64,000 bases of DNA from a virus, in IMG/VR virus record IMGVR_UViG_3300001589_000003, positions 12,279 to 76,278 of that record; one strand, given 5' to 3'. The notes beneath the pieces are model-generated. The model had not been told where the DNA came from. It was given only the letters and a program-made list of their open reading frames with translations, and made no database searches. Of the stretch, positions 10,603 through 53,607 are shown piece after piece (within the stretch, counting starts at the first letter, position 1; each line of letters opens with the position of its first letter). Both the position numbers and the translations under genes were made by a program.

Positions 10603-13146
10603 TTATACGGGTTGAACTATTATACCTCTTAATTTTATTTTACGAACATGATTGGTTATTGCCTTTGCTAAGATAGCATCATCTGTATAACCATCATCGC
10701 TTGAGAGAAGATCATCAGTTTGGGGTCCTGAACCTTTCCCCATTGCTACAGCTTTGTTTTTCTCATCATATATAAAGGTGTAGGCTTCTTGCACGAATGC
10801 TTCATCCTTTATTATAATGTTATTCAGCCTGATGTCTTCCTCAAGTTCCCCTATTATTATGGGTCTATTCTTGGAAGTTGTATACCAACCTGGTATCTTC
10901 TCTTCTTTCGGCTTTCTTTTCTTTTTCTCCTTAACTAACTTAGTAGAGTAATAAAGCTTACTGTAATTCATCTCCTGTAGTTTAGAAGTTACTGCCAAAC
11001 CTATATCATTAGATTCTGGAGCTAGAATTGCTCTATGATATATGTTACCTAGTCCTGCCATTAGTATTGCAAGCTCATTTGGGGGTAGTTTACCCTTATA
11101 AGAACCATACTCTTCTCCTTTTTCATCCATTATGGATAGAGCCGAGTAATCTCGTGATCTACCAGTTGAAACGTCACCCCCTATTCCAAACCTTCTACCA
11201 TTCTCTGGTAACTTATAAATCTGTAAATTATCCCCCATTGAGGTTTTTACAGATTTTAGAACTTTATCAAATTGCCTATGTTTAGTTAGGTCTAATGGTA
11301 TGTAATCATTTAAGCTTTCTTCTATAGCTCTTATATCCAATAGATCAAATACTGAAGACCCTGACGTTAAAAAATCGCCGTCAATTTCTTGAGCAGTACG
11401 TCTTGGTCCCAATGATGCTGACATCTCATTATACCAATTTGGGAACTTCTTGGTAGTGTCATTATCCTTACCACGTTCTGGGTGCATCTCCCATTTAAGT
11501 CGTAATGGAGTAAACTCTCCACCGGAGCAAGCTTCTACCCATTTTTTGTGAAAGAAGTTCCCGATCCCATAGGGGGTGTTATGGTTAATAAAATGCGTTT
11601 TTGTTATATAAGATTCATCTTTTTCTACGCAAATGTCATAGATGGTGTCCTTAAATTTTCTCAGTACTACCAACTTACTTATTTTAACTCCTTTACATCT
11701 ACTACCATTTAGCACTCTAGTTACATAACTTGGGTGAATCCCTAAACTTTCTGCTATATCTTTTCTTCTTATCCCAGTATAGTGTTGTTCCCATATTTTA
11801 CCAATGGTCATGATATCGGGAAACCCTTTACCCGTATTGTTATTTAGAGTTAAGCCCCTAGAGTGTTTAACCGCTCTCTGGGCATTTTCTTTTCTAGTTA
11901 TAATTTGAAGGTTATTAACATGATCTATGTTCCTGGTATCATCCTTGTGATCTACTATATGACCCTTTGGTATCTCTCCTATAAAATGGGTAGCTACTAA
12001 TATTGATACTTTAAATTTTCTTGATTTTTGCTTACTCCAAAGAGATACTCTATGATATCCCTCTGAACTAACCATTAATCTCTTCTCCTTTCCAGAACCT
12101 CTATAATACACCTTACCATGGTTAGAGATAAGATAATTAGGGTAGCCTTTTATTTTTTCCTTTCTCTCCTTCTTAGGGGGTTTATTTAGGGGAGCAACTT
12201 TTAAATTATCAACTCCACTATCAAATGTAATAGTGTATAAATCCTTTTTGATTACCTGTTTTAAAGTTTTCCAGCCTTTAGTGGTTAATACCCTATGAGC
12301 TGGAGTTGCTTTTAGCCTCTGCCCCATGTCACTCTCCACTTCCCAGGTTTTAAGTTTTCCTTTGTTTACAGCTCCTAATACTCTTCTCCACTTACCTGTA
12401 TGTGATAATACCTCTAGTCCTAAGGCTTCCACATTATGTTTTCCAAAGTTCTTTGGGGCTATCATATCAACCCTAAAATTTCCACTTTTCCCAACTATTT
12501 CTGTATCACCTGTTATACAAGAATTAAGTATAGCTCTACCCCCAGTTGATAGTGTTGGAAATGCTGCAGCCCATATTTGATCTGCCCACCTAATGATCGC
12601 AGCTTCATCAATAACCAATAACGATAAAGCCTCAGATCGACCAGCTTCTTCTGTAGTTGGTATAGAGGTAATGAGAGAACCATTAGCGAACTCGATTTCG
12701 GAGGCAGTACCCAAGTCCTTAGTTCTCCCATTGATGATTTGTACTTGAAGGTGGTCAGGTAAGTTCCTATACATGAACTTAATCTTTCTCAATACCTTCT
12801 TAGCAACGGTGTCTTTTATGCTTATGATATTTATGTTCTTGTTTGAATGGAACATTGCATACCATAAGCAAAATAATGATATCAACTCTGTCAGCCCTGC
12901 CTGGCGGAATTTGAGTATAATATTAAACCTTTCTCTAATAAAGGAATAAAGTACAGCCCTTTGATATGGATATAATCCGAATTGGACTTTACCATAGACT
13001 GGGTTAATAACGTGTATAAAGTTGGAGAAAAAGAATGGGTCGGCAGCAGCTCTGGTTAAATCCTCGAATTCATCCGAAGACAAAGGTTTGTTTACAACCT
13101 TAGAAGCTCTACCCTTGGAGCCTATGTTTTCATCTGTATTATTCAT
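10603..13146 (-). CDS. terL: Terminase large subunit with intein
   Basis: ILKFRQAGLT Walker A, LLVIDEAA Walker B, IGGDVSTG and TDDAILA nuclease motifs. Confidence 0.92.
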   Translation of the reverse strand: MNNTDENIGSKGRASKVVNKPLSSDEFEDLTRAAADPFFFSNFIHVINPVYGKVQFGLYPYQRAVLYSFIRERFNIILKFRQAGLTELISLFCLWYAMFHSNKNINIISIKDTVAKKVLRKIKFMYRNLPDHLQVQIINGRTKDLGTASEIEFANGSLITSIPTTEEAGRSEALSLLVIDEAAIIRWADQIWAAAFPTLSTGGRAILNSCITGDTEIVGKSGNFRVDMIAPKNFGKHNVEALGLEVLSHTGKWRRVLGAVNKGKLKTWEVESDMGQRLKATPAHRVLTTKGWKTLKQVIKKDLYTITFDSGVDNLKVAPLNKPPKKERKEKIKGYPNYLISNHGKVYYRGSGKEKRLMVSSEGYHRVSLWSKQKSRKFKVSILVATHFIGEIPKGHIVDHKDDTRNIDHVNNLQIITRKENAQRAVKHSRGLTLNNNTGKGFPDIMTIGKIWEQHYTGIRRKDIAESLGIHPSYVTRVLNGSRCKGVKISKLVVLRKFKDTIYDICVEKDESYITKTHFINHNTPYGIGNFFHKKWVEACSGGEFTPLRLKWEMHPERGKDNDTTKKFPNWYNEMSASLGPRRTAQEIDGDFLTSGSSVFDLLDIRAIEESLNDYIPLDLTKHRQFDKVLKSVKTSMGDNLQIYKLPENGRRFGIGGDVSTGRSRDYSALSIMDEKGEEYGSYKGKLPPNELAILMAGLGNIYHRAILAPESNDIGLAVTSKLQEMNYSKLYYSTKLVKEKKKRKPKEEKIPGWYTTSKNRPIIIGELEEDIRLNNIIIKDEAFVQEAYTFIYDEKNKAVAMGKGSGPQTDDLLSSDDGYTDDAILAKAITNHVRKIKLRGIIVQPV
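11578..12519 (-). mobile_element. Intein (314 aa) containing an HNH homing endonuclease
   Basis: Begins CITGDT, ends INHN before T of TPYG; TPAHRVLT block B; YLISNHGKV and VDHKD...NNLQIITRKEN. Confidence 0.9.
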
Positions 13147-14737: not shown

Positions 14738-15733
14738 TTAAAAGTTTAGTTTATCTATTATTGATTTGAACCATACCCCTATTTCGTAAGGGGGTGATTT
14801 TGTTACTGTTGTTCTAGCTTTGTTAATACAGTACTCTGACCAATCCTCATCATACCATAGTTTAAAAGAGTCTGGAACTCCTTGTATTCTAGCCATCTCT
14901 CTAGGTGATAACATGTGACCCCAATGATTAAACTGTCTGTTAGCTTTCCTTACTGTAAATGGGTATGCGTTGGCAAAATTACGATATACCCCTGGTTGGT
15001 TCTTCATACGCTCCCTATTTACAGGCCAACGATTTTCCGCCTTGAATTCCGTTAACCAGAGCTTTCTAGCTTTCTTAACAGATACCCTAGAATCATCGCC
15101 ATAATATAGGTTAATCATTTTCTTGTCATCTTCAGTAACATGACATATACTAGGATTATATTCCTCTAATCCTTTTATCAATTCACCTGACGTTTTGTAG
15201 ATGAAGTCGGTCTTTGGTAGTTTAAATTTTTTTATTGTATTCTTGGGTAAATCCTTATGAACCCCCACTATTACTAATCTAACCCTAGTTTTTTGAGAGT
15301 TACCCCAAGCTGATACTGACTCCTTAAAAGTAACTGTTCTGTAGTTTAAGAACTCATCCAGTAGGGTTGGGTAGTGCTCAAGCATCTTGGGTAAATTCTC
15401 CATCATAAAGAACTGAGGTTGGTAGTAGTTGATAGAATCCACAAATGCTCTTAGACTAGCGTTCTCGCTCGGATCACTCATCTTCTTAGCCCTAGAGTAG
15501 GCTAGTACTGATGAATGCCCACAGTCTGGAGCTCCAATAATGATATCTACCCCATCCTTCCTATACCTGACATCTGTTGTTTCATCATAGGATACGTTAA
15601 AATTTAGGTTCCATTGTTTTTGGTGGGTGGTGTGAAACACAGTTCTTGGTTCTATATTACCAACAAGTTGGTTTCTAAATGGGTGAAGTATTACACCGTT
15701 ACCTCCACATACTCCTAATGTTTTCAAGCTCAT
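14738..15733 (-). CDS. Atypical C5 cytosine DNA methyltransferase homologue
   Basis: GAPDC (motif IV), MENL (VI), QKTRVR (VIII), LSPREMARIQG (IX); motifs I and X are divergent. Confidence 0.75.
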   Translation of the reverse strand: MSLKTLGVCGGNGVILHPFRNQLVGNIEPRTVFHTTHQKQWNLNFNVSYDETTDVRYRKDGVDIIIGAPDCGHSSVLAYSRAKKMSDPSENASLRAFVDSINYYQPQFFMMENLPKMLEHYPTLLDEFLNYRTVTFKESVSAWGNSQKTRVRLVIVGVHKDLPKNTIKKFKLPKTDFIYKTSGELIKGLEEYNPSICHVTEDDKKMINLYYGDDSRVSVKKARKLWLTEFKAENRWPVNRERMKNQPGVYRNFANAYPFTVRKANRQFNHWGHMLSPREMARIQGVPDSFKLWYDEDWSEYCINKARTTVTKSPPYEIGVWFKSIIDKLNF

Positions 15734-15820: not shown

Positions 15821-16129
15821 ATGGAAATCAAAGAATATATAAAAAAGGCAAAAAAATATCAGAAGACCCCCAAACGGAAAAAGCTTGATAGACTAACTTA
15901 TTTAACTTTAGGATATGCGGGTGAAGGAGGAGAGGTAGCAGATGAGATTAAGAAGGCATGGAGAAATAAGTCGGGTAGGATAACTAAAGCACGTAGAAAC
16001 AAAATATTAATAGAAATGGGTGATGTCTTGAATATTACTTTTAGAATGATGAAGGAACTCGACTGTACCATGGAAGAACTTCTGGATATACACTTAGAAA
16101 AACTTAAAAATAAAGCTAAACCATTTTAA
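15821..16129 (+). CDS. MazG-like nucleotide pyrophosphohydrolase
   Basis: LGYAGEGGEVADEIKK...EMGDVL. Confidence 0.8.
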   Translation: MEIKEYIKKAKKYQKTPKRKKLDRLTYLTLGYAGEGGEVADEIKKAWRNKSGRITKARRNKILIEMGDVLNITFRMMKELDCTMEELLDIHLEKLKNKAKPF

Positions 16130-16130
16130 C

Positions 16131-16313
16131 ATGAATGCAAAGAATATTATGTCAATCGCAGGGTACTGGGTTACGTTCTACATTATACACATAGATATAG
16201 TAGAACTAGTAGGAAAGGACACCAAATACTATTGGATAATGATTTTAAAATTAGTAATATTATCACTTATGGCCTTCCTTAGAGGGTTCAACAATAAAAC
16301 TTTACAAATATGA
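16131..16313 (+). CDS. Small membrane protein
   Basis: Two hydrophobic segments. Confidence 0.45.
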   Translation: MNAKNIMSIAGYWVTFYIIHIDIVELVGKDTKYYWIMILKLVILSLMAFLRGFNNKTLQI

Positions 16314-16897
16314 AAAAACTATGGTGCCAATTTATACTTTGGCTTTTTAACAAGAACCTAATGCTCATCAATGGAGAAGTTGATGAACGGGGTAAGGTTA
16401 CAGTACATGTGGGTATTGATTCCAAATACGAACACCCACTAGGTAAGATTCAGGTGGATAGACTCTTTCACATACCAGATTGGAGATACAAAGCAGATTG
16501 GATCAATACGGAGGGCGAATATATGGTCAGGCTACAAGATAACAATAAACCCAATTTGTTTATGGAGCATATAGCAACTCGAGATGATCTAACCTCTCAT
16601 TTTGGAAAAAACTTTAACCCATCTTCTGCAAAGTTGATTGCTGGCTGGTTATTTAAACATGTTCAACTATCTACAGGAGTAGCAGTGGATGTTATCGTTC
16701 GACCTAAGGGTATGGAGAAACAATTGTTCTTAGAAAATGTGAAGAGTGGAAAAATGAAAGCTGTTGAGTTTACTAGACCCATAGATTACATGAGAGTGGT
16801 GGATGTTAATATAGAAGCTTACTCTGATGTTGCTGCTCTTAATGATGCAGAAAAGTCAGAACTGAAAGCCTTTTTACATAAAGCAGATTTATCATGA
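16310..16897 (+). CDS. Hypothetical protein
   Basis: 195 aa ORF, coupled by ATGA overlap. Confidence 0.55.
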   Translation: MKKLWCQFILWLFNKNLMLINGEVDERGKVTVHVGIDSKYEHPLGKIQVDRLFHIPDWRYKADWINTEGEYMVRLQDNNKPNLFMEHIATRDDLTSHFGKNFNPSSAKLIAGWLFKHVQLSTGVAVDVIVRPKGMEKQLFLENVKSGKMKAVEFTRPIDYMRVVDVNIEAYSDVAALNDAEKSELKAFLHKADLS

Positions 16898-17048
16898 GCC
16901 ATATGAACAGACCCTTATCTAAATTGGATGATACCAAAGTACCCAAGAAAGTATATCACTCATGGGCATCTGGGGTTGATAATGATAAGGGTAGGAAAGT
17001 AAGACATCCTTATACTGAAGTGGGGTTCAAATTTGACAAAGACAAGAC

Positions 17049-17369
17049 ATGAAAGATTCAGAGAAATTAAAACTCTTAGCTAACTGGTTTGATTTAAGAG
17101 ATAAGGAACAACCTATATTTAAAGGTAGTGGTACAGAAGTTCAAACAGACCTTAGAAGAATAGCTAGAAGCTTAGAAATAGATGAAAGCATAACCCAAGT
17201 TCCTGTAAATACTAGGCAAGTGGTAGATGTGGATGTTATCACTGGGTTTAATGCAAAAACCCTACGTGAAAATCTACTGAGAGCTTATGATGATGGTTTT
17301 GAGATAGTATCTAACTTAGCTGGTGATGCTAGACTAGGTTATTCAATTATTGTACATAAATATAAATAA
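17049..17369 (+). CDS. Hypothetical protein
   Basis: ORF track. Confidence 0.5.
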   Translation: MKDSEKLKLLANWFDLRDKEQPIFKGSGTEVQTDLRRIARSLEIDESITQVPVNTRQVVDVDVITGFNAKTLRENLLRAYDDGFEIVSNLAGDARLGYSIIVHKYK

Positions 17370-17898
17370 CATGCAAAAAGAAAGAATACCCAAAGAATTA
17401 AAAGGAGCACTGATCTGGTTAAGTATGTCAATAATACTTGGGTTCGCAGTCATATCCTTCAGTGAGAAGATAAATGGGCCGAATGCCTTTTTTAATAATT
17501 GGTGGCCTGTATTAGTAGGACTATCAATTATGGTACTAGGTATAACTAATGTACATGCTTGGCGAGAGTCCAAGAGAATTCGTAAAGGAGCCCATATAAA
17601 GGTTCAGTTCCTTAGGGCTATAGTGATATCATTAATTTCATTAGGGCTAACTATGTATGCACCTGCTCCAATTATCAAATGGCAATTCTTTATAAGTATC
17701 TGTTCTTTTCAGATCGGTATATTTATGTTAGCCTTTGATTACTTATTCAACTATTACAAAGGCAATGAATGGAGCTATTTTGGAACAGAATCAGTTCTGG
17801 ATGTTTTCAATGCTAAAATACCCATATGGTTAAACATCTTTTTGGAGGTATCATTTCTAATTGGAACTATATGGGCTTTTGATAAGTATATTGTATAA
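17350..17898 (+). CDS. Multi-pass membrane protein
   Basis: About five TM segments. Confidence 0.6.
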   Translation: MYININNMQKERIPKELKGALIWLSMSIILGFAVISFSEKINGPNAFFNNWWPVLVGLSIMVLGITNVHAWRESKRIRKGAHIKVQFLRAIVISLISLGLTMYAPAPIIKWQFFISICSFQIGIFMLAFDYLFNYYKGNEWSYFGTESVLDVFNAKIPIWLNIFLEVSFLIGTIWAFDKYIV

Positions 17899-17901
17899 TA
17901 A

Positions 17902-17977
17902 GGCAGAGGATAGCATAGCTGACAAATGCGCTACCCATACAGGGTAGAGATCGTGGGGTAAGAGCTCACCTTCTGCC
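17902..17977 (+). tRNA. Degenerate tRNA-like element, anticodon TAC (Val)
   Basis: Stems GCAGAGG/CTTCTGC, GCAT/ATGC, CTACC/GGTAG and GTGGG/CTCAC; non-canonical A33 and T-loop. Confidence 0.55.
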
Positions 17978-18305
17978 TAGAAATTTTAGAACACTCGATG
18001 GATATGTAAACCGGTGGTCGGGTCTGAACGAACGGTATAGGGGTTAATCAGAGTGAGGCATCTGTCGGGTATATGATTAAATGTATTCGTCTCAATGATT
18101 AATCATCAGGCCATTTTTTAACTTTAAATCTAATAAACATGAGAATTTTAAATGCATTCTTTTATATATTCTGCATCCTGTGGGTAGTTGCTACTCTATC
18201 TGTAGTGATTTGGATGATCACTAATTATAATCATTACGGATGGATTCTTTTAATATCACTAGCAGTTGCTGGGTATATGGTGCATAGAGTACATAACCCC
18301 AGGCA

Positions 18306-18623
18306 TTGATGGTAGAATTTAAGAACGGTACTAGAATAGAATCACCCAACCTAAGTGGACAAATAGCCATAACCGAAGAGATGGTAAAATATAATGCTAT
18401 GGGTTGGAAGGCTGAAGACTTGTTTAAAGCTGACCTTATCGAGAACACCAATATCGACCGTGACAATCCGCAAGGTTGGTATGGTTGGAAAGTGAGCTTG
18501 GGAGTATACTACTTCATCTGGAACTCACAGCCTGCAAATCCCACTAAAAAAGAAATTGCCATGATCCGAACTATGCTTCAAAGAGATGGCTATGAAGTTG
18601 AACCTTTATCACTTTTATTTTAA
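18306..18623 (+). CDS. Hypothetical protein
   Basis: ORF track; start uncertain. Confidence 0.45.
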   Translation: MMVEFKNGTRIESPNLSGQIAITEEMVKYNAMGWKAEDLFKADLIENTNIDRDNPQGWYGWKVSLGVYYFIWNSQPANPTKKEIAMIRTMLQRDGYEVEPLSLLF

Positions 18624-18682
18624 AAACCATAAGAACACTTAAATCATTTAACACAGACACAATAGATAAGTTAGTCAATGCG

Positions 18683-19000
18683 ATGAACACTATATTAAGT
18701 CAACCAGGTAAATTTAATATTCACTTACTAATGAAGGGCTTAGAAGCACATGTATACCTATCCACCTCTTTACAGAGTATGGGTCTAGTGATACAAGTGA
18801 GACCAACTAGGTATGAAGTCAATAGGGATGCTATAAAATACTACACCCCCAACCCAAGTACCCTTCGGATGACCAAGGGACATCCCTTAGCTATCTTAAT
18901 ACTTAAGCAGTATAACCTTCACAAGGATAGGTCTAATCTTAACTTTGCCTTAACTAAACTCAAAAAGAAATATGGACGATTTAACGAAAAAAGTACATAA
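18683..19000 (+). CDS. Hypothetical protein
   Basis: ORF track. Confidence 0.45.
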   Translation: MNTILSQPGKFNIHLLMKGLEAHVYLSTSLQSMGLVIQVRPTRYEVNRDAIKYYTPNPSTLRMTKGHPLAILILKQYNLHKDRSNLNFALTKLKKKYGRFNEKST

Positions 19001-19199
19001 GATTCTTGTGAAAAAATACGGTCAAGAATTTGATAAAGGGTGGTTTGAAAACGGAACTTTATTTAAAAACATAATTAAAGCAACCGAAGAAGCATTAACT
19101 ATACCCGATGTTAACAAATCTGTTTGTGTACAGACTGGATTAGAATGTGGTTTTCCTTGCCATAGTGAATGCCCTTTATATGATAAGCTGAAACCTTAA
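18972..19199 (+). CDS. Hypothetical protein with Cys-rich C-terminus
   Basis: ORF track. Confidence 0.5.
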   Translation: MDDLTKKVHKILVKKYGQEFDKGWFENGTLFKNIIKATEEALTIPDVNKSVCVQTGLECGFPCHSECPLYDKLKP

Positions 19200-19366
19200 T
19201 GAATATGAAAAATACATTTGATTACACAGCCAAGAGCAAAGAAGGAAATGACATCAATGGACAAGTGTTAGCTGAATCACACGCTGATGCTTATGACTAC
19301 TTATGTGAACAAGAGTACACAGAAATTAATGTTAAACGACATTTTGAAGTGGACGAGCTTCGTTAG
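19199..19366 (+). CDS. 55 aa protein resembling the PilC/GspF N-terminal domain
   Basis: Translated by hand: MNMKNTFDYTAKSKEGNDINGQVLAESHADAYDYLCEQ...; TAATG coupling. Confidence 0.45.
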   Translation: MNMKNTFDYTAKSKEGNDINGQVLAESHADAYDYLCEQEYTEINVKRHFEVDELR

Positions 19367-19377
19367 TAGGCTTATTA

Positions 19378-19450
19378 CCTACAACGCTCATGAATATAAG
19401 GCGTGTGGGCTGGTTTTGCGTTGTAAATGCCTTTATATTTAATGTTATCA
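19378..19450 (+). repeat. attC-like imperfect hairpin
   Basis: CTACAAC ... aatataaggc / gcctttatatt (one extra base) ... GTTATCA. Confidence 0.4.
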
Positions 19451-19487
19451 CACGTTTATTATGGTAGGAAACTTTTAAGAAATAAAT

Positions 19488-19883
19488 ATGAATAAAGTAG
19501 AGAAAGCCCTAAAGGTTGTAGATTACTCATCTTACAACCTAATTGCCCATTACCATGATAAGGAGTTTAGTCATACTATACACATCATGTTTAAGAATGG
19601 TTCAGGCTATTGTAGAGTTTATTGGTTCGATGATGACCCAGTCAATATCTACCTAGAATACCTAACCGTTAGTAAGGCTTTTCAGAAGCAGGGTAAGGGA
19701 GCACATCTCCAGGTTTTAAGGGAATCCATAGGTAGAGCAATTGGAGCAACCAAATCTAATCTGTGGGTAATGGAAGGTACGTGGATGCAAGAATGGTACA
19801 GAAGGAGAGGCTACGTTGATACTGTACCACATGAGAAAGAGCCTGGTAGTATTTGGATGGAAAAGAACATTAGAACTAGATAG
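19488..19883 (+). CDS. GNAT-family acetyltransferase
   Basis: LTVSKAFQKQGKG motif A and WYRRRGY. Confidence 0.75.
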   Translation: MNKVEKALKVVDYSSYNLIAHYHDKEFSHTIHIMFKNGSGYCRVYWFDDDPVNIYLEYLTVSKAFQKQGKGAHLQVLRESIGRAIGATKSNLWVMEGTWMQEWYRRRGYVDTVPHEKEPGSIWMEKNIRTR

Positions 19884-20250
19884 AGTTATGAGAAACTATA
19901 TGAAGCCCCAGAAGAAGAGAAACCGGTGGGACCCTTATAACCCCAAAGTATCACTTAGAGTCAAGAACGCTTATAGGAAGGTAGGGTTCACTATGACGAG
20001 GCTGGAAGATACATGCCCTACTTGCATGGGTGATAGGGAACTATGTAGAGCCAAGAAAGTCAAGGTTGAGGTTAATAACTTTATGGTTATATATTGTTCT
20101 AAAAGCTACTACATACTAGTATACAAAAAGATGTCAACCCTTGGCAAGTACCTAGAACGAATTGTTCTGGATTATCCGAAACCCTTAGGAGTTTGCCTGA
20201 AAATTCCCGTACTAAAAAAGGCACACGGTGTGAATAGAGGATATAAAAAT

Positions 20251-20289
20251 GAGGAAAGGAATAGGGGATCAATCCCTATCCAATCCCTC
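20251..20289 (-). terminator. Hairpin terminator at the convergence of plus and minus genes
   Basis: ggaatagggga-tcaa-tccctatcc stem; T-run follows on the minus strand. Confidence 0.5.
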
Positions 20290-20306
20290 ATGCATCAATC
20301 AATAAT

Positions 20307-20717
20307 CTATCCTATAATTGATTTAAGATAATCCAAAAGATTCTTGCAATCTTTGAGATCAATCTCATTCCTTGAAGATGAGAAATTCTCTATCTTAAAA
20401 TCTTGGATTTTCCAATTCTCTTTATAGAATTCCATAAATGATTCAATTGAGATCAATCTCTCTTCATCTGATCTATCTTTTCCAAGGATATCATTGATAT
20501 ATCCTCTTAATCCTCTTCTGATCTTCGATCTCTTTTTCTTCTTATCCTCTGATCCTAATGCATCTAATCCCTTATATATGGATTTAGATGATCCCTTGGC
20601 ATCTTCCTTATCCAATAGAGATTTCTTTCCTTTGGATAGATCAATCTTGATATTAGATGCATTCAATGCATCATTAGATTGAGATTCTTTCTTTGCATCC
20701 TTTAATTGATTTTTCAT
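20307..20717 (-). CDS. Basic putative pre-early protein lacking Thr and Val
   Basis: 136 aa ORF inside the island with its own promoter-like repeat. Confidence 0.75.
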   Translation of the reverse strand: MKNQLKDAKKESQSNDALNASNIKIDLSKGKKSLLDKEDAKGSSKSIYKGLDALGSEDKKKKRSKIRRGLRGYINDILGKDRSDEERLISIESFMEFYKENWKIQDFKIENFSSSRNEIDLKDCKNLLDYLKSIIG

Positions 20718-20742
20718 GATATTAGATTTAATTGATTAATAA

Positions 20743-20995
20743 ATTATTGATTTTCAAATATTATAAATGATTTTGGATTATCCTATATAAATGATTAAAA
20801 AGATTAATCCCTCTATAAAGATAGATATTCCCATGATGAATTTAAATTTCATGATCTTAATTTCTTTTCTTGATAATCCGATAGATTCCTGAATGATGAT
20901 TTGATTTTTCATGATCTTGATTTATTTAATTGATTATTGATTTTCAAATATCTAAATAAATTCTGGATTATCCTATATAAATGATTAAAAAGATT
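20743..20995 (-). promoter_or_regulatory. Tandem duplicated promoter-like blocks (20743-20805 and 20933-20995)
   Basis: 63 bp near-identical direct repeats, each with ATATTTG upstream of an MKNQ-starting ORF. Confidence 0.65.
20778..20912 (-). CDS. 44 aa membrane peptide lacking Thr and Val
   Basis: Translated by hand: MKNQIIIQESIGLSRKEIKIMKFKFIMGISIFIEGLIFLIIYIG. Confidence 0.55.
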   Translation of the reverse strand: MKNQIIIQESIGLSRKEIKIMKFKFIMGISIFIEGLIFLIIYIG

Positions 20996-21194
20996 CTCGG
21001 TAATTTCTCTCCTAACTCATGGACAATTCCGGTCGGCTGGTCTCATACACAAAGAAGGCCTGTAGCGCAGTACTTGGCCTCAGACCCTTTTATTCTTTGT
21101 AGTATTGGAATTATATGGAAGTGAATAAGATATTCGTATTTCGTGATCTAATCCACTAGAGATATGAGTGGGTATGCCTATTTCTAACCGAAGA

Positions 21195-22019
21195 TTAATC
21201 TATAATCTCTCCGTCATCCTCTCTTCTACCTTCATGGGTACCAGGCCCCTTACCCTTCTTTCTTTTCTTGGGTTCAAGGCTTATGGCCTCAGACTTAAGG
21301 TTCCAGCCCCTTTGCTTAGTTGCCACAATCTCCGGTACATCACCCTCTAGGTATTGAGCCCCCAGAGCCTCCTGTTGGGTACCGCTCTCTAGTAATGGTT
21401 GCTCTCTCTGGGCATCTATCATTTTCACAGCCTCATTGGTACCTATGTAGTTCTGGTTGTTGGCCTGTTGGTTATTATTGTTAATAACAGTAGTAGGGTC
21501 TGATGGTGTAAGAGTCTTGACTAAGTCCGCAATTGGCTTAAGACTATCCATTTGGTTCTTGATGGCTCCATTCAACGCTGATGTAAGGAATGGTACGTAG
21601 CGATCTCCTTGCTCACGCTTGAGCACCTGAACTTGGTTCAAAGCCGTGCCCCGGTCAGCCAGAGCCCCTTGAACTGTCATAGCCAACAAAGCCCGATATG
21701 TATCTTGTAACCCATCCTCTCCGTCACCTATTGCTGTCATACTCCTTACGACCTTGGTTGTGGCTTTTATGACTCTACCAACAGGCATATCAACGAAGTC
21801 TGCTAACTCTGTAATAGATATCACCTTGCCATTCACTTGATATCCATCCTCTATATATCTATGCAGTATTCTCTCTTGTATTCTCTTGTAGAGTTTTTCT
21901 CTTTGTTTTTGGTCATCTTCAACATGATAGGCTTTCATTGCCATGGTTAGTCCTGCGGTTCTTGGTACCCTAACCTTTCCGTCATCTACAGGCTTCTTTC
22001 TTTGTTTAGTCTTTTTCAT
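21195..22019 (-). CDS. Candidate terminase small subunit / DNA-binding protein
   Basis: HTH-like ITELADFVDMP, helical core, TVINNNNQ segment; no TerS next to TerL. Confidence 0.35.
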   Translation of the reverse strand: MKKTKQRKKPVDDGKVRVPRTAGLTMAMKAYHVEDDQKQREKLYKRIQERILHRYIEDGYQVNGKVISITELADFVDMPVGRVIKATTKVVRSMTAIGDGEDGLQDTYRALLAMTVQGALADRGTALNQVQVLKREQGDRYVPFLTSALNGAIKNQMDSLKPIADLVKTLTPSDPTTVINNNNQQANNQNYIGTNEAVKMIDAQREQPLLESGTQQEALGAQYLEGDVPEIVATKQRGWNLKSEAISLEPKKRKKGKGPGTHEGRREDDGEIID

Positions 22020-22189: not shown

Positions 22190-22504
22190 TTAGTGTTTAT
22201 GGTCTGGAGCAGTCCTGGTGTCTGAATACTCCACATTTGCTAGGTAATCATAGTACCAGGCCTTCCAATATTCTTCCTCTGATGCATCGAATGACCAAGC
22301 TTCCCAACCTTTACCTTGTATGATTGCCTCCTTGATCTCTTCATCATGACTACCTCTCATATCTACATGATCACCATTGAAGGTAACTTGGTGCTCATTC
22401 ATTTCTTTGAACCAATTTTCTTCATCCAAATAATTATCTATAAATGAATAATCTTTGATCTGCAACCCTTCTTCAATTAATGCATCCTCTCTTAAATTTT
22501 CCAT
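22190..22504 (-). CDS. Acidic early protein (start MENLRED)
   Basis: ORF behind an AC/GT-free promoter patch. Confidence 0.55.
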   Translation of the reverse strand: MENLREDALIEEGLQIKDYSFIDNYLDEENWFKEMNEHQVTFNGDHVDMRGSHDEEIKEAIIQGKGWEAWSFDASEEEYWKAWYYDYLANVEYSDTRTAPDHKH

Positions 22505-22563
22505 GATCTTATATATTTGATTTTCAATAATCAATATAGAGATAATAAATGATTGATCCTATT

Positions 22564-22956
22564 TTAATTGATCCCACCTTGTCTAGGTTCGGGTCTATTT
22601 GGTGTATCTGGCATTTTATCAGTGTACCATATATGTTTGTCAGCCCAATCTATTTCTAGGCCTTCTTCAAGAAATACCTCTTCGTGTACCATCACGTTGG
22701 TTATCATCTCTTTGATCTCTTCATCAGAGGGTCTTGGGTCTACCCCTTCAAAGTCCTTGAGTGCTTTAGCAAATATAGCAGCCTCCATTACAGTTTGGTT
22801 TTCATCCTCTAAGGGTTTACCTTCCTTAAATAACTCATCTATCTCATCCAGTATGGTATTGCATTTACCTTGAATGTTATTTGCTTCTTGACGTAAAGCT
22901 TTAAGCTCATTCATTTTAGATGTTATGTTCTCGTGTATTTCTTCTAATCTGCTCAT
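22564..22956 (-). CDS. Hypothetical coiled-coil protein
   Basis: ORF track. Confidence 0.5.
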   Translation of the reverse strand: MSRLEEIHENITSKMNELKALRQEANNIQGKCNTILDEIDELFKEGKPLEDENQTVMEAAIFAKALKDFEGVDPRPSDEEIKEMITNVMVHEEVFLEEGLEIDWADKHIWYTDKMPDTPNRPEPRQGGIN

Positions 22957-23363: not shown

Positions 23364-23658
23364 AATGTCTTCTTTAATTCTTTAATAAGAGTAGTTTTCA
23401 TGATGTTATCTTCTATGTAGTGTAGATTGGCCCTATGTTGCAGATGGGCTATCCCACTAGGGGCATGGTTGTTTCCTATAAACTTAATTATAGTCTTTTT
23501 TAGCTTTAGTAAGCAAATGATCTTTTTCAATCTCTTTTCTAATTCCCATAATTTTTCTATTCTTGGTTATCCAGCATCATATCATAGTTCTCAATATCAT
23601 CATGATAAAATTTGGCTTCCTCCAATTCCTTAATAGATTTATATATAATTTTTTTCAT
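23360..23658 (-). pseudogene. Early gene split by a frameshift near 23560
   Basis: MKKIIYK...NQE-stop, then IEKLWEL...KKTL in the -1 frame ending in an ATGA overlap. Confidence 0.4.
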
Positions 23659-23697
23659 AATTAAAGATATGCATAAATATTGGATAATCAAAATTAT

Positions 23698-23907
23698 TTA
23701 ATCGGGGTTCTCAGAGTTTAAGTCTACGGCCTCCAATATTAGAGCACCTAATGTTGCAATTGATTCCGGTGACAGTTGATTTGCAGGATTAAGTAATATT
23801 AATCTAAGTCTTAATGGTAATGATCTCACTAGACTTCTATTAGTGTCATGGGAATTACGCCTTTGTTTCACTTTTCCCATACTGAAGTGGTATTTTGTTT
23901 TAGGCAT
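23698..23907 (-). CDS. Hypothetical protein
   Basis: ORF track. Confidence 0.4.
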   Translation of the reverse strand: MPKTKYHFSMGKVKQRRNSHDTNRSLVRSLPLRLRLILLNPANQLSPESIATLGALILEAVDLNSENPD

Positions 23908-29898: not shown

Positions 29899-30123
29899 TT
29901 AACCCCTAGATAAGATCAATTTCTTTACAGGAGTGATCTTATAGAAAGTTCCCTTTGGTTTGCTCTTAATTCTGTAGCCTTGTTCAAGGGTATCTTTCTC
30001 GAATTTGCATATAGCATAAGGTAGATTGGTCAATATTGTACCAACATGCCTTGATTTTCCTTTCTCCTTGTTCCAATGCCATTCCTCAAGGTTGTGCATC
30101 TTTGGTTTTGATGGTGCTCTCAT
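29899..30123 (-). CDS. Hypothetical protein
   Basis: ORF track. Confidence 0.45.
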   Translation of the reverse strand: MRAPSKPKMHNLEEWHWNKEKGKSRHVGTILTNLPYAICKFEKDTLEQGYRIKSKPKGTFYKITPVKKLILSRG

Positions 30124-30872
30124 TAGTTCAACATTTTTTGTCCTCCGTATCCTCGGTCTGCTCCTACCCCTTTGGCTACATTCATATTTCTTCCGGCCTC
30201 TACTCCACTCTTATACCCTGCTTGAGAGTATGGAGTTTTCTGTTTAGCATGTCCAGCATTAGGGTAATTCTCCGACATCCATTTAGATAGCTTACCTCCT
30301 TTATCTAAGACTATAGCATCTACCTTAATGTTGGTGTGCCTCTCATTCTGTTGCTCTTCTCTGAGCTTCTTCCCTATACCCTCAGCTGCTCCCCTAAGCC
30401 ATGATCTTATGTAGGTATTTCTCTTATCTCCTCCATCATAGCTCTTGAATGAATCTCTAGCTAATATTCTTAGTCTAGGTACTAACTGGTGAACCATATA
30501 GTGAGTGAACTCTCTATGCATTGGTTGTCCGATCAAATGAACCTTTAAACCTGATATAGACCCATCTGTTAGTATAGTGCAGAAATTAGGTCCAGCACAT
30601 GCATTATATAGATATACTACCCATGAAGATTCGTGTCTATTGGTAAGTTCTGAGCAATCTACATTTTCTTCATTAATGTTTTCGGTAGCGTTATCGCTCA
30701 TGTCTATCTCTGACATCTCCAACTCATACTGTATTAGCATTTGTTGTATCTTAGATGCAAAGGCTTCAGCCTCTTGAAGGTTCCCCAGTTGCCTAGCTGA
30801 CTCCTCCTTTTTCATCATCTTTCTAAGCTTGATCTTTATCTTGCCAAGCTGATCATTTTGTGTCTCATTCAT
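30123..30872 (-). CDS. DUF2786-type protein
   Basis: EAEAFASKIQQMLIQYEL N-terminus; SWLRG and AGYKSG. Confidence 0.65.
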   Translation of the reverse strand: MNETQNDQLGKIKIKLRKMMKKEESARQLGNLQEAEAFASKIQQMLIQYELEMSEIDMSDNATENINEENVDCSELTNRHESSWVVYLYNACAGPNFCTILTDGSISGLKVHLIGQPMHREFTHYMVHQLVPRLRILARDSFKSYDGGDKRNTYIRSWLRGAAEGIGKKLREEQQNERHTNIKVDAIVLDKGGKLSKWMSENYPNAGHAKQKTPYSQAGYKSGVEAGRNMNVAKGVGADRGYGGQKMLN

Positions 30873-34646: not shown

Positions 34647-36468
34647 TTATAACTGTTTTTCATTAGAAATTCCGGCTAGAATCTCTTTGAATTCTAAAGA
34701 GTCAAATATAATTGAATCTTTTCTATTTTCCATACAAAAATCAAAATAAACTTTAGAGTCTTCTATGTTGGTATTGATCAATAGTAGTTCTTTTTTTACT
34801 CTGTATTTTAAACCCTGTTTCTGACTAGTCCACTCCAGCCAGGTTATTATTATCAAGCTACCTTCACCATGGTTCTTTATCCTATCTCTTAGGTAATCTA
34901 CCTTTCTTTGTAATTGAGATACTCTAGTTTTCCTTTTTATCTTCTCTGCCCTAGTATTATAAATCTCCTTATTGGCTATTTCTCCACATAGTAGGTCATT
35001 GGTTTCTTTCCACCTTATGATTAGTTGTTTGAGAGTTTCTCTTTCCATGCCTTACTGTATTTTTGTACTAGGTAATTAGTTAATTTCTCCTGTTTTGCTA
35101 CTGATCTGGTATATGCCTCATTCTCATCGTTTTTTAATGAATCTAGTAGATGATTTAGAGTTTCCATTATAGAATCTAGTAGAGTGTCTCTAAACTCACT
35201 AGAAACTTCCCTAGCATCCTTATGGCTGATTTTTATATTGATTCTCTTAAGTGATCTTCTACTTTTACGGTTTTTGTTACTAACCTTCCATCTTTTTACC
35301 TCGGTTAGTAATAGTACTGCAGTGTATAGGTAATCTATATATTTATTAGCAATAAGTACATCCTCATCATGGCCTATTATTGAGTAGGTTGAACATACTG
35401 TATCATCTAGTATAGCTGAGGTCTTAATTATTTTAACATCTAGGTATAGTTGTAGAATGGAGGACAGTGGGTCCAACCATTGTGGTATGTTACCACATAC
35501 TTGGAGTAGATTTACATTAACCTTTACTGGGTTGAATTCTTTTCGATGGGTTTCCTTGATAGCTACTATGTACCTATGAGCATCAGTTAGTTTCTCGGGT
35601 ATCTTGAGTCTGTAGGATAGTTTGGGGCTACTTACAGTTCTAAGAGTGGTCTTGATTTTTCCAGTTAGGTGACTCATTTTGGTTTGGTAAGATTATACTA
35701 GATTTTGTTTTAGTTGGTTCAGGGTCTAGCTCCTGTAGTATCTGTTTTAGCTCCTCCTTGAAAGCTTTAGCATCTTGTTTTATCAATTGGTGCATCTCAT
35801 CATTAAGCTCCCCGAACTTAAATACACTAGCATCCATTGCCATCTCACCGGCAGTCATCATTATCCAAAGAGAATTAGCCATACCAAATGTTATTGGTAA
35901 GTCTACCGCTTCTTCTTCGAGCTCTCTTGTTGATCTTTTGTGAATCTGTCTATCATTGACTTCACTGGGGCTCTGTCTTTTTCCATCCATGTTAGTAATT
36001 CTTTTCTAGTTGTACATATTACTAGGGGTGGTACCATTGGTAGTGTTACCATACTGGCTCCTACTGGTAATAGAGCTTTCATCGTAGTATTAGCTGTACC
36101 TTTTTCTCTAGCATTATCCATATCATCTGCCTTGGCTACATTGTGCTTCATTATCCTATTGAACTCAATGTACCATGTTTTCTTGTTCCTACTCTTTGGA
36201 TGAATAAGAGATTTTACTACCTGAGTAGTCATTATACTCTGTGTTTGTGGGTCTATGAAGAATATTTCATCTCCTACCTCTGATTCTGAAAATGGTTTTT
36301 TCATAGCTCTAGGGTTGAAATGTTAGAATCACCCTTGCTTTCATTTATCTCCTTTTGTACCAATTTACTAACCCTGTGGGCTATCGTGGTATCATATGGA
36401 TGAGTTAGATGTTCTTTTGTAAAACTATCTAGCATTGATTTGAATGATATAAGCTCGGGTCTATTCAT
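34647..36468 (-). CDS. Run of hypothetical ORFs (34647-35048, 35021-35677, 35640-35990, 35903-36304, 36301-36468)
   Basis: Overlapping ORFs; the last was found by hand. Confidence 0.5.
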
Positions 36469-51973: not shown

Positions 51974-52732
51974 TTAGTAATTATCATAGACCTCAAAATC
52001 ACCTTGAAAGCAGTGTAGATTAGCTATATGCATATTTATATGCCCAGGTCTTAATCTCTTACCCACTCTACCCATGACATGGTATAATAACCTAACCGCC
52101 ATGTATATATCATCTCTAAAATGCCTGATAACATCACATGATCTAATGTAATATGTTATATCCATCCTACCATTTTTTACTTGAAATAGATACCCCAAAG
52201 TACATGGTACTCTCTGACCTCCTAATGGTCCTGTATCTTCTGGGAACCATATGGGTAAGAATGCTTTTCTAGTGTGTTTCTGGTCTTTCAATAGGTTGAT
52301 TACATCATCTAAATCTCCATACTCATACCTAATACCATGTAAGCTTAAATGTTTATGGGCTACGTGTTTAGGCCATATTCTTTCTGGGTAGGTATGAGAG
52401 AATTGCTCATCTTTTACATGTTTTGCGTTAGCTCTTACACCAAAAGGCCATCTTACATGAGATGGAGGAGGATTCAAGGGTTTACCTGATACCCTCTCTA
52501 AAAAATGCTCATCGGCCCATGGTAAATTGGGTTGGCATTGGATTACTAACTCATTGATATTGCTAGGTACTGGTGCTCTAAATGATATACCCAATACTTC
52601 TACCATCTTATCTAATGGAGTTGTGGATTGCCAGGAGTTACCTTGATGGGTTGTACCTGCTACTACTAAATGATCTTTACAAGCTTTTATAGCTCTACTT
52701 ATACTTGAGTACTCTTTTATGGTTGGTGTCAT
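51974..52732 (-). CDS. Thymidylate-synthase-fold enzyme 1, dCMP-type
   Basis: VPCT catalytic Cys; RSCDVIRHFRDD with Asp at the specificity position. Confidence 0.8.
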   Translation of the reverse strand: MTPTIKEYSSISRAIKACKDHLVVAGTTHQGNSWQSTTPLDKMVEVLGISFRAPVPSNINELVIQCQPNLPWADEHFLERVSGKPLNPPPSHVRWPFGVRANAKHVKDEQFSHTYPERIWPKHVAHKHLSLHGIRYEYGDLDDVINLLKDQKHTRKAFLPIWFPEDTGPLGGQRVPCTLGYLFQVKNGRMDITYYIRSCDVIRHFRDDIYMAVRLLYHVMGRVGKRLRPGHINMHIANLHCFQGDFEVYDNY

Positions 52733-53607
52733 CTCTTTCTAGTGTTATGTATTCTTAATTCTTGTGGGGTTTGTACATCTTTTGGAATTAAGTCTTGGTC
52801 AGGTCTAAGTTTTAAAGTCTTAGCCTTCATTGATTTAACTCCACTTATTGGTAAGCCATCCTTACCCTTCTGTATCTGCATTACTGACCTCCTGTTAACC
52901 CTAAACATTATTGATTTAGGGTCAGGGTGGTTCATGTATTCTTTGAATTTCTTTTTAACATTCACGTGAAACTTATAATCATCCTGATCTGTACCCTTTA
53001 ATGACTTTTTTAATAGCTTCATTATAGGTTTCACATTATTGTACATCACAAAACTCTCTGCTGTAATATAAAAGGATGGAGCAAATAAGTGCACCTCAAA
53101 TTCATTGTGACCATATATGTATTCCCCTATCCTTTGTACTAATAAGAAATCAAACAGTAACCTCTTAGTAACTTCGGATGTTCTGATCTGGAATACAAGA
53201 ATTGGTTTGGGTTGATAAGGTCTTTTAGTAAATGTAATTGCCACTAAGCAATCCTTACCTGATCCGTGAGAGTTGTCGAAGTGATAAGTATAGTTATACA
53301 TACTCGCTTTCTTAGCTACCCTCTCCGAGATAGTAGCACGTAAGAGATCAAGATAGTTAAAGTCTACATAATTATTCACTAGAGCAGTCCATTTTTGAAG
53401 AGAATACCCCAAGGTTATACCAAAGTCAAACTCTGGGTCAACCCATGCCTCCTCCATGGTTACATAGTTATTAAAGCTTAGCATCTTTGACCCTGCTAAC
53501 CCTCCTCCTGTTGGTGCTATCTTACCTTGCTCAAGAAAAAGATACTCATTGATACCCTGCCAACCTTTCTGTAGGTTTTTAAACTTTAGTTGTGTTATGT
53601 GATGCAT
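52729..53607 (-). CDS. Divergent thymidylate-synthase-fold protein 2
   Basis: KDCLVAITF and IRTSEVTKRLLFDF with TS-like spacing. Confidence 0.55.
   Translation of the reverse strand: MHHITQLKFKNLQKGWQGINEYLFLEQGKIAPTGGGLAGSKMLSFNNYVTMEEAWVDPEFDFGITLGYSLQKWTALVNNYVDFNYLDLLRATISERVAKKASMYNYTYHFDNSHGSGKDCLVAITFTKRPYQPKPILVFQIRTSEVTKRLLFDFLLVQRIGEYIYGHNEFEVHLFAPSFYITAESFVMYNNVKPIMKLLKKSLKGTDQDDYKFHVNVKKKFKEYMNHPDPKSIMFRVNRRSVMQIQKGKDGLPISGVKSMKAKTLKLRPDQDLIPKDVQTPQELRIHNTRKR

Follow-up and report, generated by a model that had tools for sequence, protein, structure and literature searches.

We found that one small gene cassette of an uncultured phage with a genome of 76,278 bp (IMG/VR record IMGVR_UViG_3300001589_000003) lacks AC/GT dinucleotides altogether, so that its two proteins have neither threonine nor valine, and that the same cassette is also free of this step in diverged relatives. 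The window analysed here is a stretch of 64,000 nt of that record (positions 12,279 to 76,278), and coordinates are those of the window. A preliminary description had pointed out a 770 bp island without AC/GT, and all its counts are confirmed here. The AC/GT dinucleotides bounding the gap start at 20230 and 21000, which leaves a free interval of 20231-21000, while 75 occurrences are expected from the base composition of the island and 80 from the dinucleotide frequencies of the genome (log10 P of such a run, about -34 to -36). The next longest AC/GT-free runs in the whole genome are 120 and 111 bp, and the nearby control segment 20101-20160 holds 10 AC/GT. No other dinucleotide pair showed a comparable gap, apart from the genome-wide scarcity of CG. 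Within the island GC occurs 7 times, 6 as TGCA and 1 as GGCA/TGCC, and AGC/GCT is absent.

The free interval matches a single minus-strand unit, whose parts, together with two genes of possible relevance elsewhere in the window, are the following.
20231-21000, no strand: AC/GT-free (purine-C-poor) interval of 770 nt.
20917-20995, minus strand: upstream promoter-like repeat P2, 84% identical to P1, with the dyad GGATTATCC (20965-20973) and a Bacteroidota-type -7-like box, GATATTTG on the minus strand (20945-20952); promoter function is inferred.
20778-20912, minus strand: 44-aa ORF of membrane type, with a hydrophobic C-terminal half and no Thr or Val.
20727-20805, minus strand: second promoter-like repeat P1, with the dyad GGATTATCC (20775-20783) and the box AATATTTG on the minus strand (20755-20762).
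20307-20717, minus strand: 136-aa ORF (P0006) with no Thr, Val, His or Pro, basic (pI 9.4), with a disordered N-terminus and a helical C-terminal domain by prediction.
20265-20287, minus strand: terminator-like hairpin followed by a T-rich tail; the island ends about 35 nt beyond it.
20169-20177, plus strand: third GGATTATCC dyad, just outside the island and downstream of the terminator.
14738-15733, minus strand: divergent C5-cytosine methyltransferase-like gene, candidate writer of a purine-C mark; its link to the cassette is inference only.
51974-52732, minus strand: thymidylate-synthase-fold enzyme with Asp at the base-specificity position, which marks it as dCMP-type; its link to the cassette is inference only.

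The dyads (GGATWATCC) are present in only 3 copies in the 64 kb, all at the cassette. A relative, the metagenomic locus L004, has 5 copies in 1.5 kb. Small membrane-type ORFs sit at the same place in the related loci L003 (59 aa), L004 (47 aa) and L007 (about 60 aa). By sequence, the duplicated promoter repeats, the terminator hairpin and the converging flanks are those of an autonomous, moron-like cassette lying between larger modules. The GC-rich non-coding stretch upstream of the cassette was not conserved among three relatives, and an Rfam search of 19500-22000 gave no match.

To ascertain whether the absence of AC/GT was shared, we examined the homologous loci of relatives, the condition under which the preliminary description would have failed being a normal AC/GT frequency in them. 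It was not fulfilled: the cassettes of three independent metagenomic relatives, L003/G001 (784 bp), L004 (869 bp, followed by 3 sites in 1,146 bp) and L005 (more than 482 bp), are AC/GT-free, at 49-64% protein identity. The 136-aa protein belongs to a large phage family of unknown function, with 234 clusters at E <= 0.001. Of its 150 best cluster representatives, 21 have no Thr or Val, one has 1-2, three have 3-5 and the other 125 have six or more, 101 of them more than ten, so that the distribution is bimodal. Free members go down to 24-35% identity with the protein of the window. Where relaxed members have Thr or Val, free members have Ile, Leu, Met or Ser, which is substitution within a conserved protein. 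A tree of 159 family members on a recoded alphabet showed 13 changes of the Thr/Val-free state, of which only 2 are forced by supported branches. Since independent JGI, ENA and Logan assemblies share the feature and TC and CC cytosines are plentiful, an artefact such as a converted-DNA library was rejected. Other searches gave no further relatives: no close relative by DNA in the phage collection, none in IMG/VR by single-protein locus searches with the 136-aa protein or its 274-aa neighbour, none in IMG/VR or JGI with an alignment of the neighbour, and none in IMG/VR with sub-alignments of Thr/Val-free members. GTDB genomes hold no homologue, and hence gave no host or prophage lead.

The comparison also showed that the rule is wider than AC/GT and consists of purine-C avoidance. 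Whereas ACA, ACC, ACT and GCT each occur about 17-28 times and GCA about 15-18 times per 800 bp of bulk DNA, in the strict islands ACN, GCT and GCG are 0, GCC is low and GCA stays at the bulk level (13, 17 and 18 in three of the four strict units), L004 being the only one with no GC at all. A fourth lineage, represented by L007, has relaxed only ACC and GCC: its unit has ACC 21, GCC 14 and GCA 27, all at the bulk level, but ACA 1, ACT 4, ACG 0 and GCT 5. The effect is local and at the dinucleotide level, since bulk AC/GT has an observed/expected ratio of 0.94, and it is not a genome-wide depletion of 4-6-bp palindromes, as GATC, TGCA, CATG and GAATTC all occur in the island. The 11 GATC sites, which had been taken as an argument against general restriction-site avoidance, carry no separate signal: a first-order Markov model of the island predicts 10.4, and the count is a by-product of the GA and TC enrichment that the rule forces.

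The constraint acts at the DNA level and is tied to the unit. Both strands obey it, and so do the untranscribed DNA upstream of the promoters and about 15-45 nt past the terminator in the window, L003 and L004. These observations bring close to refutation an explanation at the level of RNA or translation, namely a sequence-specific RNase or an attack on the matching tRNAs. mRNA interferases with ACA, ACY or GCU specificity exist and the proteins do lack Thr and Val, but the rule holds in all three reading frames and across codon junctions, an mRNA-level rule does not need both strands (an antisense transcript of equal importance would be required), and NAC codons are avoided although the same tRNA reads NAU. 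Also very unlikely is a mutational footprint left by a purine-C-specific cytosine deaminase. AT, GA and TC steps are enriched, as expected after C-to-T changes at purine-C, but the ORFs are intact and conserved down to 24% identity, Leu is as common as Ile at former Val/Thr columns, which deamination cannot produce, the edges are sharp at the limits of the unit and GCA stays at the bulk level. PAM avoidance is no more plausible: type I-D CRISPR systems use a GTN PAM, but a PAM-free gene gains nothing while the rest of the genome is targetable, and a GTN PAM does not explain the avoidance of GCT. We conclude that the feature reflects strong and long-lasting selection on the DNA, and not chance.

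We then looked in the genome for functions that could account for such a specificity. The product of 14738-15733 matched Pfam PF00145 (E = 1.7e-17; 64.3 bits, cut-off 22), and the gene is conserved in L003, L006 and the distant relative MT121964 with PDC/PSC, ENLPK and QxxRxR motifs (motifs conserved in 4 relatives). The thymidylate-synthase-fold enzyme was identified as thymidylate synthase by both Pfam and PHROG, but on alignment with T4 thymidylate synthase (1tis) and with N229D mutants the catalytic Cys is kept and Asp replaces the Asn of ThyA, as in the dCMP hydroxymethylase of the T4-type 5-hydroxymethylcytosine pathway, although the product could be 5-methyl or 5-hydroxymethyl. A MazG-like pyrophosphatase and a kinase-like gene with weak (d)NMP-kinase matches are also present. 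In contrast, a six-frame search of the genome (a record about 90% complete) with the TET/JBP profile PF12851 gave no match at E <= 0.1, and PF01702, for a DpdA-like transglycosylase of the 7-deazaguanine pathway, gave none in six frames while its control was positive in 14 of 14 genomes. The glucosyltransferase profiles PF09198 and PF11440 gave no match either, but the PF09198 control matched nothing in any genome, so that absence is not shown. For the 136-aa protein, PHROGs, NCBIfam and Pfam gave nothing (DOCK_C-D_N hits were considered compositional), the ESM Atlas gave nothing usable, and the AlphaFold model (pLDDT 68) had no Foldseek match at E <= 0.001, the best VIA Z of 5.5 being noise for a helical bundle.

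We believe that the most plausible explanation, which we hold with moderate confidence only, is that the cassette avoids the sites of a context-specific cytosine modification, or of a reader of that modification. In this view, the 770 bp are one autonomous transcription unit of the host-polymerase type and the one unit with no such site, and whatever acts at modified sites (a modification-dependent nuclease, a glycosylase or a binding protein of the host) could not cut, damage or block it, so that its products could be made from the infecting DNA whatever happens to the rest of the genome; we expect those products to serve counter-defence or host takeover. The absence of the sites, its conservation in relatives, its dependence on the base 3' of the cytosine, its coincidence with the limits of the unit and the presence of cytosine-modification genes are established by the analysis. 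In contrast, that the DNA is modified, that the writer is the divergent methyltransferase-like enzyme or a partner acting on 5-substituted cytosine, that a host reader exists, when the unit is expressed, and what the proteins do are all inferences.

The hypothesis is in keeping with what is known of phage enzymes that write marks at two-base contexts and discriminate the 3' base in a clade-specific way. Clade I C5-methyltransferases, found with TET and glycosyltransferases, act on GpC[C/T/G] but not GpCA (PMC8256090), the carboxymethyltransferase CmoX is GC-specific (PMC12783734) and T-dioxygenases have NTC or NTG preference (PMC13229309). The avoided GC contexts of the cassette (GCT, GCG and most GCC, but not GCA) match the clade I specificity, although this comes from avoidance and not from activity, and no enzyme with ApC specificity has been described. 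Other points do not fit easily. A TS-fold dCMP enzyme would replace every cytosine, which leaves no substrate for a C5-methyltransferase, so the two candidate writers are not simply reconciled. L006 has the methyltransferase-like gene yet a relaxed cassette, and MT121964 has the gene and no cassette. Moreover, a site-free cassette does not protect the rest of the genome from a nuclease, and the model also needs reversible damage, stepwise entry or help to co-infecting kin. As to the reader, McrBC recognises R-mC on either strand and cuts 30-35 bp away (PMC3874153), which is about the size of the margins around the unit. However, McrBC needs two sites, would still destroy the rest of the genome and is not known to discriminate the 3' base. 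If all cytosines were modified, the 6 TGCA sites would still be targets for an E. coli-type McrBC, so that plain McrBC avoidance fails in three of the four strict units.

The preliminary description had proposed that something, such as a bulky base modification or a nuclease, acts on AC/GT in virion DNA, and that this self-contained unit must work without such sites because it is the first DNA injected and transcribed. This interpretation is only partly supported: an action on a very short step at the DNA level, and a unit shaped to lack it, are borne out, whereas a bulky modification or a nuclease remains an inference and the leading-end idea receives no support and seems unlikely. In its favour, T5-like phages resist restriction provided that the sites are absent from the first-entering region (PMC10644984), and the cassette lies at the junction of converging gene blocks, 4.5 kb from the packaging module. 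If the physical end lay just left of it, the gene order would run cassette, small early genes, replication genes and late genes. In MT121964 the contig ends fall in the homologous region, but that end is an internal promoter repeat, and thus an assembly break and not a genome end. Against it, the island lies 32 kb and 43 kb from the contig ends and its counterpart in G001 is also mid-contig, both records being linear without end repeats; the large terminase is closest to those of the T4 type, which usually means headful, permuted packaging; and the free stretch stops on both sides at the limits of the unit rather than running to an end. The T5 first-step-transfer region, like the T7 early gene 0.3 (Ocr), is nevertheless a close parallel, being a small early unit that carries no target site and must work before the rest of the genome is protected, as the cassette may have to do. 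In T5, however, the avoided targets are 4-8-bp sites of particular enzymes in a region defined by its terminal position and an injection stop, whereas here a dinucleotide class is absent, two amino acids are lost, the stretch matches a single transcription unit and no terminal position is shown.

Two further possibilities were considered. Bulky modified purine-C sites could stop or slow the host RNA polymerase, the cassette being read before a phage factor, possibly its own product, relieves the block. The free stretch does run from about 60 nt upstream of the presumed start site to about 35 nt past the terminator, the avoidance is absolute, as expected if a single site aborts the transcript, and in the L007 unit the tolerated ACC sites lie 18 to 3 on the non-template strand, against about 1:1 in bulk DNA (p about 0.01 after allowing for composition). 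However, a template-only block would not clear the non-template strand, yet both strands are empty in the strict islands. The modified DNAs of T4 and SPO1 are transcribed by the host polymerase, and the other host-type early promoters and all other early genes contain AC/GT at near-normal levels. True promoters have 1-4 sites per 60 nt, as in MT121964, so that a related suggestion that early promoters lie in AC/GT-free patches is weak, even if AT-rich windows have an observed/expected ratio of 0.62 against 0.86 in MT121964. We consider this roadblock unlikely. More doubtful still is a zone free of priming sites. T4 primase recognises GTT and GCT and makes primers that begin with purine-C (pppAC and pppGC, from template G-T-N and G-C-T, if the phage enzyme is T4-like), this phage encodes a DnaG-type primase and a DnaB-like helicase within a T4-like replication module, and GCT is absolutely avoided while GCA is not. 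But there is no rationale for a priming-free transcription unit, all four GTN are avoided, not one, and the lineage-specific exemptions, simple when read from the base 3' of the cytosine, are awkward as primase trinucleotides, GGTT being tolerated in L007.

A literature search found no description of a dinucleotide-free phage gene unit, and none of the papers cited above on dinucleotide-specific modification reports, in the parts consulted, a modification-free gene cassette. Morons and acr-aca-type cassettes resemble this unit in having their own promoters and terminator, operator-like dyads, small genes of unknown or counter-defence function and a place between larger modules, but no known cassette of these kinds shows such a compositional rule, and no HTH regulator was identified here. 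A bolder and more tentative reading, not excluded by the data, is that this phage family writes a previously unknown purine-C-specific cytosine (hyper)modification over its whole genome, through the divergent methyltransferase-like enzyme with a 3'-base preference differing between lineages, and that each genome keeps one modification-free blind spot, a counter-defence cassette whose DNA and protein alphabet (no Thr, no Val, few or no Ala) have co-evolved with the specificity of the writer.

A nucleotide-level rule strong enough to remove two amino acids from conserved proteins in many diverged phages points to a DNA-acting factor with two-base specificity that nobody has characterised. If the factor is a writer, the avoided k-mers of the cassette would give its recognition motif, and the motif shifts between lineages, from sequence alone, and the writer would add an ApC-type specificity to the enzymes used for epigenetic mapping. 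If it is a host reader, the cassette reveals a defence and a new way to escape it, a gene that cannot be hit. In both cases, Thr/Val-free small ORFs become a simple search key for such cassettes in metagenomes, and the 136-aa family becomes a marked candidate for an early counter-defence or takeover protein.

In the preliminary description, it was proposed that a segment of this phage genome is devoid of AC/GT dinucleotides, and this is confirmed here. The window that contains it corresponds to bases 12279-76278 of a 76,278-bp linear virus record that is about 90% complete, and positions are given here in window coordinates. AC/GT dinucleotides start at 20230 and at 21000 with none between them, whereas about 75 are expected from the base composition of the island itself and about 80 from the genome frequencies (log10 P about -34). 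No other dinucleotide pair shows such a gap, apart from the general scarcity of CG (632 in the whole window against about 2,030 expected, O/E 0.31), which is shared by the CG-poor relative MT121964, while GC is only mildly low (0.9). The next longest AC/GT-free runs in the genome were of 120 and 111 bp. These runs (111 and 120 bp, at 22412-22576 and 23510-23707) lie within 3 kb of the cassette, over promoters and the 5' ends of small early genes, and one of them shares the TTGAAAATCAA motif with the putative cassette promoters. Within the island, GC occurs seven times, six as TGCA and one as GGCA, AGC/GCT is absent, and the two ORFs have neither Thr nor Val. The eleven GATC sites, which had been taken as an argument against general restriction-site avoidance, are what the dinucleotide make-up of the island predicts (10.4): since G must be followed by A or G, and C preceded by T or C, GA and TC are enriched, and GATC therefore says nothing either way.

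The phage has a T4-like core that includes portal, protease and large terminase genes, plus SbcCD-like, RecA-like, SSB, PolA, DnaB-like helicase and primase genes, and its promoters carry TAnnTTTG boxes, as in Bacteroidota. The large terminase (10603-13146, minus strand, 847 aa) has an HNH endonuclease domain at residues ~261-504, between the ATPase and nuclease parts, that looks like an intein or a homing-endonuclease insertion, and the relatives match only the flanking parts. Two paralogous DUF7168 proteins (30123-30872 and 35021-35677, minus strand) lie among the small early genes. The island sits where a 4.3-kb plus-strand block (15821-20100) meets the long minus-strand array, 4.5 kb from the methyltransferase-lysis-terminase module. 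Read on the minus strand, it represents a complete unit, with promoter and terminator functions inferred from sequence alone:

20917-20995, minus strand, promoter-like repeat P2
20778-20912, minus strand, 44-aa ORF with a hydrophobic tail
20727-20805, minus strand, promoter-like repeat P1, 84% identical to P2
20307-20717, minus strand, 136-aa ORF
20265-20287, minus strand, terminator-like hairpin

The free stretch begins about 25 nt upstream of the -33 region of P2 and ends about 35 nt after the terminator hairpin. A possible plus-strand ORF without family match (19900-20331) runs 100 nt into the island, across the terminator and the 3' end of the 136-aa gene. The dyad GGATWATCC occurs three times in 64 kb (20169-20177, 20775-20783 and 20965-20973), in all cases at the cassette and with one copy downstream of the terminator, and it looks like the operator of an unidentified dimeric regulator.

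We then examined whether the island was present in other phages. The distant syntenic phage MT121964 (portal 40% identical) has neither the 136-aa gene nor an island. In contrast, the 136-aa protein has 18 close homologues, nine of which have at most two Thr+Val. Among the five loci for which DNA was obtained, L003 (identical to L008), from a 79.6-kb freshwater-type viral contig, is AC/GT-free for 784 bp; L004 is free for 869 bp and has only three sites in a 1,146-bp three-gene unit; L005 is free for more than 482 bp, up to the contig end; and L006 and L007 are three- to four-fold depleted but not empty. In L003 and L004, the free stretch again runs from upstream of the first putative promoter to just past the terminator, and a small membrane ORF again precedes the homologue. 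The GGATWATCC dyad is present in five copies in L004 (177-1326), whereas L003 has CGGAT...ATCCG dyads instead. The L004 cassette holds a third ORF (210-542, 110 aa) with its own promoter, which also lacks Thr, Val and Ala, so that the rule belongs to the cassette and not to one gene.

A profile search of 1.8 billion representatives disclosed 234 clusters of the 136-aa family. Of the best 150, 21 have no Thr or Val at all, one has 1-2, three have 3-5 and 125 have six or more, of which 101 have more than ten. The free members reach down to 24-35% identity with the protein of this phage and, on a tree built from a recoded alphabet, the free state needs 13 changes, although only two of these are forced by supported branches. 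At columns where relaxed members have Thr or Val, free members have Ile (39), Leu (30), Met, Asn or Ser. Some homologues are one-sided (family members P0068 and P0139: Thr 10 with Val 0, or Thr 1 with Val 13), and may represent strand-specific or context-restricted versions of the rule. These results show long-standing selection on a functional protein, and not decay or hypermutation.

To define the rule more precisely, we counted R-C-N trinucleotides on both strands.

R-C-N counts on both strands in bulk DNA and in the cassettes
DNA: ACA, ACC, ACG, ACT, GCA, GCC, GCG, GCT
Bulk, per 800 bp: 17-24, 26, 5-10, 23-28, 15-18, 9-14, 2-3.5, 18-22
Own island (769 bp): 0, 0, 0, 0, 13, 1, 0, 0
L003 island (783 bp): 0, 0, 0, 0, 17, 5, 0, 0
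L005 part (628 bp): 0, 1, 0, 0, 18, 0, 0, 0
L004 unit (1,146 bp): 1, 0, 0, 2, 0, 0, 0, 0
L007 unit (796 bp): 1, 21, 0, 4, 27, 14, 0, 5

The rule is thus purine-C avoidance with exemptions set by the 3' base: GCA is not avoided at all in most lineages, RCC is not avoided in the L007 lineage, and L004 avoids every purine-C. Given the dinucleotide frequencies, AGC/GCT is the only further trinucleotide missing (0 against 18 expected, four islands pooled). This graded, lineage-specific pattern is how enzyme specificities vary. Published phage C5-methyltransferases are GpC-specific, with clades that take GpCN, GpC[C/T/G] (not GpCA) or GpC[C/T] (PMC8256090), and a GC-specific carboxymethyltransferase and T-dioxygenases with NTC or NTG preference are further precedents for two-base marks on phage DNA.

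The candidate actors in this genome are the following:

51974-52732, minus strand, TS-fold protein that keeps the catalytic Cys and has Asp where ThyA has the dUMP-specifying Asn, as the T4 dCMP hydroxymethylase does
near it, a MazG-like pyrophosphatase and a kinase-like gene with weak (d)NMP-kinase matches
14738-15733, minus strand, divergent C5-methyltransferase-like gene that heads the late module and is conserved in L003, L006 and MT121964

The TS-fold gene overlaps a 292-aa gene with no Pfam or PDB sequence match (51974-53607, minus strand, for both), and 238-aa and 155-aa genes of unknown function follow. This may be a nucleotide-modification module. Searches in six frames found no TET, TGT/DpdA or T4-type glucosyltransferase, although the control for PF09198 was uninformative. 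On the host side, McrBC is the known reader of purine-modified-C and cuts 30-35 bp from a site.

Both strands, all frames, codon junctions and untranscribed promoter DNA obey the rule, and a DNA-level actor is therefore required. The absolute strictness suggests that one site is already costly, as with a cut, an excised base or an aborted transcript, and the match with a transcription unit suggests that what is protected is the ability to express these two genes. We therefore favor a cassette kept free of the sites where the cytosine modification of the genome is written or read. Whereas the absence of the sites, its conservation, its dependence on the 3' base and its match with the unit were observed directly, the modification itself, its writer and reader, and the expression of the cassette are inferred, and the hypothesis rests on no chemical evidence. 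Moreover, a pool-level dCMP enzyme and a DNA-level C5 enzyme do not fit together simply, ApC specificity has no known precedent, and the tolerance of GCA argues against a plain McrBC-type reader. In addition, a site-free gene does not save the rest of the genome, which would need reversible damage, stepwise entry or benefit to co-infecting kin.

The interpretation put forward in the preliminary description, that something acts on AC/GT sites in virion DNA and that the unit would correspond to first-injected, first-transcribed DNA, is only partly supported. While the requirement for a DNA-level actor agrees with it, the leading-end variant has no positive evidence: the island is mid-contig, the terminase is T4-type, and the end of the MT121964 record (L001/L002) repeats an internal promoter plus gene start located 1.35 kb upstream (74051-74150 and 75401-75500), so that this record ends at an assembly break and not at a genome terminus. 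A roadblock variant, in which modified sites would hinder transcription, is weakened because other early promoters and genes carry AC/GT at near-normal density, as they do in the cassette-less MT121964, although a non-template bias of the tolerated ACC sites in L007 (18 to 3, p about 0.01) is a hint in its favor. A primase-site-free zone, RNA-level avoidance, deaminase footprints and PAM avoidance were also considered and seem unlikely.

Altogether, this is a real, conserved and very unusual feature, due to an as yet unidentified actor. Target-site avoidance in an autonomous phage unit is a known logic, exemplified by the T5 first-step-transfer region, but it has not been seen at the dinucleotide level, with loss of amino acids, or with the lineage-specific 3'-base exemptions displayed by this cassette and its relatives.
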